A DNA stretch of 60,550 nucleotides from a virus (taxonomy: Duplodnaviria > Heunggongvirae > Uroviricota > Caudoviricetes). The notes under the pieces are model-generated. The model worked only from the letters and a program-made list of their open reading frames with translations. It made no database searches and was not told the DNA's origin. Position 1 is the stretch's first letter. Every line of letters begins with the position of its first letter. Shown in pieces: positions 16,542 to 20,080 of this stretch. Where the stretch lies: the IMG/VR virus record IMGVR_UViG_2844443253_000004; one strand, 5' to 3'. Position numbers and translations under genes: made by a program.

Positions 16542-16613
16542 TGAAGTGGCACACTGAATTTGGCCACCTGAACAGAGGTGATATGCTCACCTCAGAACAA
16601 CACAGGTGCTCCA

Positions 16614-16916
16614 ATGAAAAAAAGAAATTTTAGCGCAGAGTTTAAACGCGAATCCGCTCAACTGGTTGTTGACCAGAAATACACGGTGGCAGATGCCGCC
16701 AAAGCTATGGATGTTGGCCTTTCCACAATGACAAGATGGGTCAAACAACTGCGTGATGAGCGTCAGGGCAAAACACCAAAAGCCTCCCCCATTACCCCGG
16801 AACAAATTGAAATCCGTGAGCTCAGGAAAAAGCTACAACGCATTGAAATGGAGAATGAAATATTAAAAAAGGCTACCGCGCTCTTGATGTCAGACTCCCT
16901 GAACAGTTCTCGATAA
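16614..16916 (+). CDS. IS911 OrfA
   Basis: [46 protein letters not shown]...; A AAA AAG frameshift heptamer at 16865-16871. Confidence 0.9.
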
Positions 16917-17303
16917 TCGGGAAACTCAGAGCGCATTATCCTGTGGTCACACTCTGCCATGTGTTCGGGGTTCATCGCAGCAGCTACAGATACTGGAAAA
17001 ACCGTCCTGAAAAACCAGACGGCAGACGGGCTGTATTACGCAGTCAGGTACTTGAGCTACATGGCATCAGCCACGGTTCGGCCGGAGCAAGAAGCATCGC
17101 CACAATGGCAACCCGGAGAGGCTACCAGATGGGACGCTGGCTTGCTGGCAGGCTCATGAAAGAGCTGGGGCTGGTCAGCTGTCAGCAGCCGACTCACCGG
17201 TATAAACGTGGTGGTCATGAACATGTTGCTATCCCTAACTACCTTGAAAGGCAGTTCGCCGTGACCGAGCCAAATCAGGTGTGGTGCGGTGATGTGACCT
17301 ATA
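16868..17303 (+). pseudogene. IS911 orfB exon 1 (interrupted by group II intron)
   Basis: frame ends ...VWCGDVTY then intron GTGTG at 17304. Confidence 0.85.
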
Positions 17304-17959
17304 GTGTGCCCGGAGTTCAGGGCGGGCATGGATGCTTAAATGAACCGCGAGTCTGTCTGGAATATTGAACCGGTAACTCACGATGAGAAACCCAACAATC
17401 CCACCGGGTGTGACGGTGGAGAACCTGAGCGGCAGTGACCTGCGGCATGCCCGCAGGGTGATGTAACCCGCTGACAACGGGGATTGAGGCGAGATCACTA
17501 AGCCGAGATGATCCTCAAGGTTAAGTACTGAAAGGCTGAAGAACATGAACCCGTTAATCCGCCTCTGTGGGTTGAAAACGTCACCACGGTCTACGTGATC
17601 TGACAGGCCGTGCAGGAGGAACTGGCAGTGATACGTAAGCACTGCCGGTCGAAGGTGTTTTGACATGTATGCGAAACACCGGGGCAGCAGCGTCTATCAC
17701 GCTTGCGTTGCTGACTTCTGCCAACTTGCGGCAAGCAAGGATAAAGAGTGCGACGGGCAGCCTCCTCAGTATGCCTGAGTCCAGGCAGGTAAACCGGGGA
17801 AGGTCAGCGACGGATGTTAAGGGGGCATGGCTCCGATGACGCGCTGGCTGGCGGAGCTTCCGTAGTAGTCCGCGATGGGGAAAGCCCATTACATGGCGAA
17901 GGGAAGCAGTTTGAATGTGTTTGCGACGTGAATTAACTGACCTAACGAGGTGAAGACCT

Positions 17960-19483
17960 TTGATAATCAGCGAAATGCAACGCAAGCTTGCCACATGGGC
18001 AGCCACCGATCCGTCCCTACGGATTCAACGGCTGCTGCGTCTGATAACACAACCAGAATGGCTGGCTGAAGCGGCGCGGATCACGCTTTCATCAAAGGGG
18101 GCGCATACCCCCGGCGTGGATGGCGTGAACAAAACAATGCTACAGGCCAGACTGGCTGTTGAGCTGCAAATCCTCAGGGATGAATTACTCTCAGGCCACT
18201 ACCAGCCCTTGCCCGCCAGACGGGTTTACATCCCTAAAAGCAACGGCAAACTGCGACCACTGGGTATCCCCGCGTTGCGGGATCGTATTGTTCAGCGGGC
18301 CATGCTGATGGCGATGGAGCCGATATGGGAGAGTGATTTTCATACGCTCTCATATGGCTTCCGGCCTGAGCGCAGTGTCCACCACGCGATCCGCACGGTG
18401 AAATTACAGCTCACAGACTGCGGTGAAACCCGGGGACGCTGGGTGATTGAAGGCGACCTGTCCAGTTACTTCGACACCGTACATCATCGACTGCTGATGA
18501 AGGCTGTACGCCGCAGGATCAGTGACGCACGTTTCATGACTCTGCTGTGGAAAACCATCAAGGCGGGACATATCGATGTCGGTCTCTTTCGGGCGGCCAG
18601 TGAAGGTGTGCCACAGGGCGGTGTTATATCGCCGCTATTATCGAACATCATGCTGAATGAGTTCGATCAATACCTGCATGAGCGCTACCTGAGCGGGAAA
18701 GCCAGAAAAGATCGGTGGTACTGGAATAACAGTATCCAACGGGGCCGAAGTACGGCGGTCAGAGAAAACTGGCAGTGGAAACCCGCGGTGGCGTACTGCC
18801 GCTATGCCGATGATTTTGTCCTCATCGTCAAAGGCACCAAAGCACAGGCGGAAGCCCTCAGGGAGGAGTGTCGGGGTGTGCTCGAAGGCAGTCTGAAACT
18901 CAGGCTGAACATGGATAAGACTAAAATCACCCATGTTAATGACGGCTTTATCTTTCTGGGGCACAGGATCATTCGCAAACGCAGTCGTTATGGCGAGATG
19001 CGAGTGGTCTCAACGATCCCGCAGGAGAAAGCCAGAAACTTCGCCGCATCGCTGACAGCACTGTTATCAGGCAACTACAGTGAAAGCAAAGTCGATATGG
19101 CTGAACAACTCAACCGAAAACTGAAAGGCTGGGCCATGTTCTATCAGTTCGTTGATTTTAAGGCCAAAGTCTTCAGTTATATCGACCGTGTCGTGTTCTG
19201 GAAGCTGGCTCACTGGCTGGCCCGCAAATACCGTACAGGTATCGCTTCCCTGATGAGGTGGTGGTGTAAATCACCGAAACCGGGTCAGAGCAAAACGTGG
19301 GTTTTATTTGGTAAAACCAATCACGGCAAGCTCAGCGGCGAAATACTGTACCGGTTGGTGGGGCAAGGCAAGAAGCTGTTCCGCTGGCGGCTACCCGAAG
19401 GTAATCCCTATCTGAGGACGGAGACCAGAAACACGTATACATCGCGCTTTACAGAAGTGGCAATGGCGTTCGCCAGCATTTAA
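17960..19483 (+). CDS. group II intron-encoded reverse transcriptase/maturase
   Basis: 507 aa with RT motifs (...LRPLGIPALRDRIVQRA..., ...YADDFVLIV...) and C-terminal maturase region. Confidence 0.88.
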   Translation: MIISEMQRKLATWAATDPSLRIQRLLRLITQPEWLAEAARITLSSKGAHTPGVDGVNKTMLQARLAVELQILRDELLSGHYQPLPARRVYIPKSNGKLRPLGIPALRDRIVQRAMLMAMEPIWESDFHTLSYGFRPERSVHHAIRTVKLQLTDCGETRGRWVIEGDLSSYFDTVHHRLLMKAVRRRISDARFMTLLWKTIKAGHIDVGLFRAASEGVPQGGVISPLLSNIMLNEFDQYLHERYLSGKARKDRWYWNNSIQRGRSTAVRENWQWKPAVAYCRYADDFVLIVKGTKAQAEALREECRGVLEGSLKLRLNMDKTKITHVNDGFIFLGHRIIRKRSRYGEMRVVSTIPQEKARNFAASLTALLSGNYSESKVDMAEQLNRKLKGWAMFYQFVDFKAKVFSYIDRVVFWKLAHWLARKYRTGIASLMRWWCKSPKPGQSKTWVLFGKTNHGKLSGEILYRLVGQGKKLFRWRLPEGNPYLRTETRNTYTSRFTEVAMAFASI

Positions 19484-19488
19484 ATGGA

Positions 19489-19522
19489 GAGCCGGATGCG
19501 CTGAAAGGTGCACGTCCGGTTC
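19489..19522 (+). ncRNA. group II intron domain V hairpin
   Basis: GAGCCGGATGCGCTGAAAGGTGCACGTCCGGTTC, classic 34-nt domain V. Confidence 0.8.
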
Positions 19523-19572
19523 GGGGAGGAGAGGCAGGGAAATAGTCCGACTACGCCCTGCCTCTTACTCTA

Positions 19573-20052
19573 CTCTGGACGGGTAAGCGCTGGGCGTACC
19601 TCGCCGTTGTTCTCGACCTGTTCGCAAGAAAACCAGTGGGCTGGGCCATGTCGTTCTCGCCGGACAGCAGGCTCACCATGAAAGCGCTGGAAATGGCATG
19701 GGAAACCCGTGGTAAGCCCGGCGGGGTGATGTTCCACAGCGATCAGGGCAGTCATTATACGAGCAGGCAGTTCCGGCAGTTATTGTGGCGATACCAGATC
19801 AGACAGAGTATGAGCCGGCGCGGAAACTGCTGGGATAACAGCCCAATGGAACGCTTCTTCAGGAGTCTGAAGAACGAATGGATGCCGGTGGTGGGTTACG
19901 TAAGCTTCAGCGAGGCAGCTCACGCCATAACGGACTATATCGTTGGATATTACAGTGCACTAAGACCGCACGAATATAACGGTGGGTTACCCCCAAACGA
20001 ATCGGAAAATCGATACTGGAAAAACTCTAACTCGGTGGCCAGTTTTTGTTGA
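19573..20052 (+). pseudogene. IS911 orfB exon 2
   Basis: ...[24 protein letters not shown]...HSDQGSHY...; in frame with exon 1 after intron removal. Confidence 0.85.
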
Positions 20053-20080
20053 CCACTTCAGTGGCGGTAAGACGGGGAAT

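Follow-up and report, generated by a model that had tools for sequence, protein, structure and literature searches.

A probable E.c.I4 group II intron in the transposase genes of two IS911 copies at prophage joints

What separates the two halves of an IS911 transposase gene in a 60,550-nt stretch of DNA from a virus of the Caudoviricetes (IMG/VR record IMGVR_UViG_2844443253_000004; here called the window), and are those halves relics of separate origin or parts of one gene? A preliminary description of this DNA, made from the sequence, proposed that a group II intron with a reverse transcriptase (RT)/maturase gene lies in orfB of the insertion sequence (IS) IS911. Our analysis bears this out: the interrupting element has GUGUG...CUAC ends, encodes a protein with RVT_1 and GIIM domains, covaries with its exons at exon-binding sites (EBS) and intron-binding sites (IBS), and is missing from some orthologous IS911 sites in related genomes. 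We consider it very probable that the element is a copy of E.c.I4, a self-splicing ribozyme and retroelement, that entered the IS911 transposase gene by retrohoming to its cognate site. What was read directly from the sequences compared, and is described below, is the element's anatomy and structure, its pairings and identity, the exact restoration of the exons and the polymorphism between empty and filled sites.

Anatomy of the interrupted IS911 and its intron

The first IS911 of the window (copy 1) occupies positions 16542 to 20060 on the plus strand and measures 3519 bp with the intron and 1249 bp without it. The features of this IS3-family element are all present, namely terminal inverted repeats with ends at 16542 (TGAAGTGGCAC...) and 20060 (...GTGGTCAACAAAAAC, the reverse complement), orfA (16614 to 16916, plus strand, 100 aa; Pfam HTH_Tnp_1, 3.8e-14), orfB in the −1 frame, a DDE (rve) core and sequence identity. 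Two plus-strand parts make up orfB: a 5′ part (16943 to 17303) that matches Pfam HTH_21 and ends ...GAT GTG ACC TAT A, and a 3′ part (19574 to 20052) that begins with T and matches Pfam rve (1.1e-24), rve_3 and rve_2. Between them, in the sense orientation relative to orfB, lies the 2270-nt intron (17304 to 19573, plus strand), which starts GTGTGCCCGG, with GUGUG at 17304 to 17308, and closes with ...CUAC at 19573; identical ends are found in about 40 relatives. The preliminary description had placed the last intron base at 19572, giving 2269 bp, and held that removal of this segment restores the frame. Cutting out 17304 to 19572 in fact produces a frameshift (TYTLDG*), whereas cutting out 17304 to 19573 leaves orfB open through to the stop at 20052.

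The predicted ligated-exon junction reads ...GACCTATA joined to TCTGGACG..., and a 214-nt in silico spliced junction matched, in one piece and at 100% identity, the annotated uninterrupted IS911 of many Escherichia coli genomes; at least 80% of it is held by 2830 of the 5426 complete E. coli genomes searched. In IS911 orfB the intron sits one base past the Tyr codon of D-V-T-Y, a motif whose Asp is the first of the DDE catalytic triad; because the intron lies in the sense orientation, splicing would restore an intact OrfAB. The two orfB fragments are thus exons of a single IS911 gene and not pseudogenes of separate origin. Since the Rfam E-value, the profile hits (both given below) and the exact exon restoration are mutually independent, we dismiss a chance origin.

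The intron-encoded protein (IEP), an RT/maturase, is specified by positions 17960 to 19483 on the plus strand. This frame is open from a TTG codon and gives the 507 aa previously proposed; in an identical copy, the PGAP annotation instead begins at the ATG matching 17975, yielding a 502-aa product named ltrA. Pfam detected RVT_1 (2e-34) and GIIM (1.3e-10), and the translation carries a YADD motif. No HNH or other endonuclease family was found in this ORF (open reading frame) by Pfam at E ≤ 1e-3, and the tail past the X domain comprises only about 80 residues. Homologues number in the thousands. The nearest solved structures are those of LtrA (5g2x_C, E = 4.2e-52) and the GsI-IIC RT, and the solved retron-type and G2L4 RTs are among the weaker sequence matches.

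Relatives for comparison were obtained from a scan of one genome per species, which returned 550 loci; the best 80 (L003 to L082) encode IEPs of 67 to 100% identity. We then examined the catalytic 3′ domains. Rfam Intron_gpII (RF00029) matches 19487 to 19573 with 64.9 bits (gathering score 40; E = 1.6e-10), which agrees with the domain V hairpin noted earlier at 19489 to 19522. This 34-nt plus-strand hairpin has an AGC triad, a 2-nt bulge and a GAAA loop of the GNRA type, and its 14 pairs are 99.8% paired across 39 distinct sequences. Domain VI (19526 to 19570, plus strand) follows with 18 pairs in two helices, 8 of which show compensatory changes, six of them in the main helix, and with a bulged branch-point A at 19567, 6 nt ahead of the last intron base. 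For domains V and VI together, 32 pairs with 99.2% of cells paired were observed, compared to 37 to 48% when the partners were slid, and 9 pairs have compensatory changes.

The Rfam models of domains I to IV gave zero matches at E ≤ 10, and the fold was therefore derived from 41 to 42 relatives, with RNAalifold applied to 41 nonredundant 5′ regions for domains I to III. The resulting structure contains 143 pairs in 28 helices, and 94 of these pairs show changes on both sides. Cells were 97.4% paired against 36 to 42% with partners slid by 1 to 3 columns, the covariation score was 0.531 against 0.08 to 0.10, and the observed values were attained in none of 500 shuffles. On the plus strand, domain I spans 17309 to 17798 (intron nt 6 to 495) and has compensatory changes in nearly all of its helices; domain II spans 17802 to 17849 (nt 499 to 546), where helices 23 and 24 have 8 and 2 compensatory pairs, respectively; and domain III spans 17850 to 17942 (nt 547 to 639; helices 25 to 27). 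The preliminary description had named the lack of a domain I to VI fold, or of RT blocks in the ORF, as grounds for abandoning the intron; the domains fold, and RVT_1 was found.

Domain IV starts with the hairpin AGGUGAAGACCU (17948 to 17959, plus strand), immediately 5′ of the ORF. It is near-invariant in 41 relatives whose protein identity falls to about 67%, and it holds a GAGG Shine-Dalgarno-like motif 8 nt ahead of the TTG at 17960. This hairpin is likely the putative IEP-binding DIVa element, and it could possibly act as a high-affinity IEP site that also controls translation. Separately, we noted a match of 94.7% identity between intron nt 1 to 76 (17304 to 17379) and pO157-type plasmids of E. 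coli O157 (hits H27 to H29), within a gene annotated as encoding an ATP-binding protein; the plasmid stretch may be a piece of a related intron.

An RT lying inside an IS could also belong to a retroelement that is not an intron, such as a retron, a defense-associated RT or a group-II-intron-like RT, and the weaker matches to retron-type and G2L4 RTs would fit such an origin. We regard this proposal as refuted, with next to no probability left to it: the protein carries a GIIM maturase domain and its best structural relatives are group II IEPs, domains V and VI lie directly downstream, the 656-nt region 5′ of the RT ORF is structured and covaries, and removal of the element restores the exons exactly.

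The group II intron so defined is very probably an element already known; it is common in E. coli and Shigella and lies in a published homing site. Intron copies in E. coli are 99 to 100% identical to it; at least 80% of the intron is present in 1874 of the 5426 complete genomes (about one third), in copies of 99.5 to 99.9% identity, and the IS911::intron composite in 781 genomes. A 100% identical IEP is encoded in one Shigella flexneri genome of GTDB (L004), and near-identical intron copies occur at the homologous position of other IS3-type genes. Intron nt 1 to 1764 are 99.5% identical to the fragment at the K-12 ykfC locus, which we equate with the one E.c.I4 fragment recorded for MG1655 (PMC3522654). 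E.c.I4 inserts at specific positions of IS629, IS911, ISEc16 and ISEc31 (PMC3522654), and E.c.I4 of E. coli and S.f.I1 of S. flexneri (both names of the Zimmerly database), which are 99% identical to each other, belong to class A and encode IEPs without a DNA-binding/endonuclease (D/En) region (PMC3552965, PMC4244168). The window intron resembles both in its specific site in IS911 and other IS3-type transposase genes and in an IEP with RT and X domains and without D/En, and in these features nothing substantive sets it apart from them. The nest of three mobile elements (intron in IS in prophage) highlighted in the preliminary description is therefore present, but it is typical rather than remarkable, as the homing of E.c.I4 into IS911 has been published (PMC3522654).

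Target recognition in IS911 and in other IS3-family genes

Which exon positions does the intron read? We computed mutual information between intron columns 6 to 499 (∼494 columns) and each exon position over 58 intron/exon combinations. The top partner of exon position −1 was intron nt 363 (69% paired, 6 pair types), that of −2 was nt 364 (98%, 4 types) and that of −3 was nt 365 (98%, 4 types); position −10 pointed to nt 276 (81% paired; GC 9, AU 37, UA 1) and position +1 to nt 330 (97% paired; UA 51, UG 2, GU 1, CG 1, AU 1). Position −13 is a nearly invariant G, and its partnership with nt 279 is for that reason supported by pairing (100%; GC 57, UA 1) and not by covariation. These partners define, all on the plus strand, EBS1 (UGUAUG, 17666 to 17671, intron nt 363 to 368) in a 9-nt hairpin loop; EBS2 (ACGUC, 17578 to 17582, nt 275 to 279) in a terminal loop closed by 267-269/280-282, where the closing pair 269-280 covaries between U-A and C-G; and EBS3 (A330, 17633), whose partner is the first base of the 3′ exon. 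The corresponding exon elements are IBS1 (CCTATA, 17298 to 17303, exon −6 to −1), IBS2 (GATGT, 17291 to 17295, exon −13 to −9) and IBS3 (T, 19574). EBS2 thus pairs with the Asp codon and the two bases that follow it (GAUGU). All 5 bp of the IBS2-EBS2 duplex are matched in IS911, whereas the same intron in other IS3-family sites faces A or U opposite C276, which makes IS911 its best-matched home.

A complementarity scan had offered intron nt 263 to 270 (UGUGGGUU) as a different EBS1. We rejected this candidate, as the stretch is largely helical, U265 is replaced by A in several relatives with the exon unchanged, and covariation favors nt 363 to 368. The neighboring match of the same scan, nt 275 to 282, was partly retained as EBS2 (nt 275 to 279). 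A further signal came from G336 (17639), in the loop that bears EBS3, which covaries with exon position −6 (17298): C-G pairs were counted in 45 cases and G-C in 4, the latter in four apparently independent lineages with AGC in place of ACC. G368 of EBS1 could pair with exon position −6 as well, and the covariation of G336 with this position lies outside any model so far.

The same target recurs across the family. Among the best 80 of the 550 loci, about 55 distinct intron/exon combinations place the intron nearly always one base after the Tyr codon of a W..D-(I/V)-T-Y motif, and nearly all loci with a 5′ flank share the consensus ...TGG NNN NNN GAY NTN ACN TAY N, directly followed by the intron. 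The hosts span many genera and are mostly Gammaproteobacteria; some contigs were attributed to Alphaproteobacteria, Desulfarculaceae and other groups. In silico splicing of 20 relatives' loci gave a continuous transposase sequence in most, and of five spliced transposases compared with Pfam, four match rve, where the junction falls about 12 residues after the domain begins. An exception was seen in a metagenome-assembled genome of the Pseudomonadales, where a multicopy intron (L066 to L070, L075) is also found at sites that are not IS3-like.

Within the pairing, G364 and G277 stand opposite the third positions (U/C) of the Tyr and Asp codons, respectively. Because both G residues face wobble positions, synonymous transitions leave the pairing unbroken. 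Between 2013 and 2020, class A was described as tiny, with two or three near-identical members (PMC4244168, PMC7306698). Tentatively, and with more doubt than confidence on our part, class A might instead be a large lineage, with many members beyond Escherichia and Shigella, of hyperparasites dedicated to IS3-type DDE transposase genes, with EBS wobble letting one intron invade diverged IS3 members.

The window also contains three copies of the IS3-family element IS600, at 5779 to 7042 (plus strand), 21773 to 23009 (minus strand) and 34423 to 35686 (plus strand). All three have the homologous site, GACCTGACGTATG followed by T, unoccupied by an intron, with a pairing potential of 6/6 positions for EBS1, 4/5 for EBS2 and the T at +1. 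The copy at 21773 to 23009 has a 27-bp in-frame deletion at 22246 to 22254 that removes ATQEGWLYL, two bases past the potential intron site. We considered whether this could be a scar of intron loss and rejected the idea, as the retained G before TTGC puts the crossover downstream of the intron site; the deletion looks like slippage between the 9-nt repeats GTATGTTGC and GTATCTTGC.

Two intron copies and their empty and filled sites

The preliminary description treated the IS911::intron as single. That copy is real, but a near-identical second one at 25047 to 28565 on the minus strand went unmentioned. IS911 copy 2 likewise spans 3519 nt and has its own intron (25534 to 27803) and RT ORF (25624 to 27147), all on the minus strand; a second Rfam Intron_gpII match falls at 25534 to 25620 (minus strand), and a repeat finder returned 16542 to 20063 and 25044 to 28565 as an inverted pair, with the IS911 copies 4986 bp apart. 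Across 3519 positions, the two copies disagree at 7; the intron accounts for 6 of these and the 3′ exon for 1. The RT ORF of copy 2 is intact, with three synonymous changes and one conservative change (L300I) relative to copy 1. Duplication in assembly was considered as a source of copy 2 and rejected on account of the seven differences, the distinct flanks and the presence of both IS positions in independent assemblies.

Are these introns recent arrivals at their sites? Related loci were found through the junction ORF at 23221 to 25080, which runs from a truncated primase gene into IS911 copy 2 and is unique to that joint. The search yielded six S. flexneri-type chromosomes (L084 to L089), including CP058589 (Shigella flexneri M2901) and CP045941 (AUSMDU00010535), which makes S. 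flexneri the most likely source of the window. The 60-mers across the IS911/flank junctions are unchanged at 4/4 junctions in four of the six loci and at 3/4 in the other two. In L084, L085 and L086 both IS911 copies are empty; in L087 and L089 copy 1 contains the intron and copy 2 is empty; in L088 copy 2 is empty and copy 1 shows neither an empty nor an intron junction, the right junction being absent; and in the window both copies are filled. As the junctions exist with empty IS911 copies, the rearrangement joints are older than the introns. At all six variable intron sites, the introns in copy 1 of L087 and L089 match the copy-2 allele of the window; the copy-1 intron of the window is a different allele, and the exon single-nucleotide polymorphism stays with the locus. 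This pattern suggests at least two separate and recent intron gains or gene conversions at the two IS911 sites, and it is the best available evidence of intron activity.

The same data bear on whether both introns are inert relics, carried passively inside IS911 during transposition and recombination and no longer splicing or moving. Group II introns of the Enterobacteriales tend toward inactivation and extinction, and many genomes have a single copy despite free homing sites (PMC3522654); the three IS600 copies of the window, with their empty and well-pairing sites, are in keeping with this. Nevertheless, we think such a state unlikely, as both RT ORFs are intact with differences that are synonymous or conservative, and the catalytic RNA motifs and pairings are all kept. 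Moreover, related genomes have orthologous IS911 elements with the same junctions and no intron; of the places compared, the window alone has a filled copy-2 site; and two intron alleles occur at the copy-1 site in different genomes. Empty orthologous sites together with two alleles call for insertion or conversion at a time when the IS copies were already fixed.

Several points weigh against our reading of the element as an E.c.I4 copy that retrohomed into IS911. First, the pairing of EBS1 with IBS1 in IS911 is weak, with four contiguous pairs that include one G-U, followed by a C/U mismatch at −5/367 and then a G-C pair. Second, E.c.I4 and class A are a probable assignment, drawn from the K-12 fragment, from the homing sites and from how the class has been described, which agree with one another. 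Third, activity in splicing and mobility is suggested by intactness and by the polymorphism. Finally, precise loss of the intron, or gene conversion, could in principle have produced the mixture of empty and filled sites in place of gain.

Both IS911 copies are themselves recombinant joints between phage fragments. No target-site duplication of 3 to 4 bp was found at copy 1, where TTT lies to the left and GTG to the right, or at copy 2, with GTC and TTG in the IS orientation. Since the flanks are noncontiguous phage fragments and the duplications are lacking, each copy is assigned to a joint; the identity of IS911 is unaffected. Compared to the Shigella dysenteriae prototype of this IS3-family element, the window copies are intron interrupted and lack the usual 3-bp duplication. 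The nesting in phage DNA proposed in the preliminary description therefore holds, although the IS is a joint of inverted prophage fragments and not a simple insertion into an intact prophage.

The surrounding window consists of two prophage remnants arranged head to head and riddled with IS elements, at least six of them of the IS3 family. To the left of copy 1, the minus strand carries phage genes for structural proteins and terminase, together with a DedA-like gene and the 3′ half of an Rz-like spanin gene (16296 to 16541, minus strand; PHROG 13, 3.6e-28, positions 76 to 153 of 154), which adjoins copy 1; this flank is collinear with a prophage of E. coli FDAARGOS_943 (L001, to position 20566) right up to the IS base. 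To the right, the late-regulatory region of the same phage type is inverted. It begins with a 5′-truncated Q-like antiterminator gene that adjoins copy 1 (20081 to 20503, plus strand; PHROG 753, 1.1e-53, positions 47 to 188 of 189), lacks the first 46 profile positions, is inverted relative to the Rz fragment and matches L001 in reverse (23899 to 23405); four tRNA genes and part of a holin gene follow, and the region ends at IS600. Beyond IS600 come the end of a helix-turn-helix (HTH) gene and a phage DNA primase gene truncated by copy 2 (23221 to 25046, plus strand; PHROG 510, 6.7e-195), which matches positions 14989 to 16816 of L002, part of a 2907-nt gene. Past copy 2, a lambda-like remnant on the plus strand has genes for DnaC-like and DnaB-like proteins, Q, the same four tRNAs, holin, endolysin and Rz, the last cut by another IS600, and then terminase, head and tail genes. 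PHROG matches in the window as a whole were to spanin, Q-like antiterminator, primase, DnaC-like, DnaB-like, holin, endolysin and small terminase families.

Two other features of the remnants were noted. In the left prophage remnant, the gene for the large terminase is split by an IS2 copy at 12785 to 14117. The four-tRNA cluster (CAT anticodon, Arg-TCT, Thr-TGT and Gly-TCC) is duplicated at 20693 to 21002 and 31974 to 32284, both on the plus strand, each time downstream of a different Q-like antiterminator gene; PGAP assigns the CAT tRNA to Ile in a related prophage. No toxin genes were found between the tRNA clusters and the holin gene.

Could the 3.5-kb IS911::intron tandems have driven this rearrangement, with recombination between the inverted repeats flipping the 5-kb segment between them? 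In favor of this, 4986 bp separate two inverted copies of 99.8% identity, both of which lack a target-site duplication; copy 1 is bordered by mutually inverted pieces of a single phage late region; and intron/IS tandems of more than 3 kb have been proposed to be more recombinogenic than the IS alone (PMC3522654). We find this quite improbable, however, because the same four junctions exist in L084 to L086 with both IS911 copies intronless. In addition, swapping the inner flanks gives no matching 3-bp duplications (TTT versus TTG, CAC versus GAC), the inner flank of copy 2 is the primase gene of another phage type and not the missing half of Rz, and IS600 copies also occupy joints. A composite transposon, in which the inverted IS911::intron pair and the 5-kb segment moved as a unit, would account for two inverted IS copies bracketing a short segment with four tRNA genes, but it is very improbable given outer ends without a direct repeat (CTTT at 16538 to 16541 versus GACA at 28566 to 28569), enclosed DNA that consists of truncated phage genes and IS600, and outer flanks that come from two different prophage remnants. 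The 12-kb unit was likewise absent elsewhere in the 5426 E. coli genomes, in which no place covered even 35% of the same 21-kb arrangement.

Possible mechanism and meaning of the locus

Splicing activity, the priming mechanism and the choice of donor copy are what we infer for E.c.I4 at this locus, in part by analogy with better-characterized introns. Transcripts from the IS911 promoter would splice with the help of the IEP to give an intact OrfAB transposase, whereas unspliced RNA would encode only the N-terminal, noncatalytic part of OrfAB. A ribonucleoprotein (RNP) would then reverse-splice into IS911 DNA chosen by RNA-DNA base pairing through EBS1, EBS2 and EBS3, presumably while that DNA is transiently single stranded at replication forks. 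Since the IEP has no endonuclease, cDNA synthesis may be primed by nascent strands at the forks, in the manner documented for endonuclease-minus (En-minus) RmInt1 (PMC8914252). In the S. flexneri lineage, both IS911 copies had probably been fixed at the prophage joints already, and the introns arrived later and separately.

RmInt1 of Sinorhizobium meliloti, an En-minus intron of class D with its home in ISRm2011-2, likewise lacks an endonuclease and spreads among IS copies; it is the model of endonuclease-independent retrohoming at replication forks (PMC8914252, PMC1802570). It is unlike E.c.I4 in phylogenetic class, RNA substructure, targeted IS family and EBS sequences. With Ll.LtrB and its protein LtrA (class ML, IIA), the window intron shares reverse splicing by an RNP steered by EBS-IBS pairing. 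This is the best-studied bacterial group II intron. LtrA, however, includes domains for DNA binding and an HNH endonuclease and works by target-primed reverse transcription. Ll.LtrB relies on δ-δ′ pairing where the window intron uses EBS3-IBS3, and the home of Ll.LtrB is a relaxase gene and not an IS.

At the level of the locus, the significance of these results is very small, as the window adds one more copy pair of a common enterobacterial intron, and their practical value lies in the annotation of the orfB fragments as exons. Only two aspects go beyond routine annotation, and then slightly: the polymorphism between empty and filled sites and the targeting of catalytic-motif codons throughout the family. 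Among S. flexneri genomes, the locus is a clean natural series of orthologous sites with no intron, one intron or two, which could mark recent retrohoming and offers a starting point for the question of E.c.I4 activity. If the family-wide pattern is true and unpublished, the wobble-tolerant reading of catalytic-motif codons could help to explain how an intron without an endonuclease stays mobile in many hosts.

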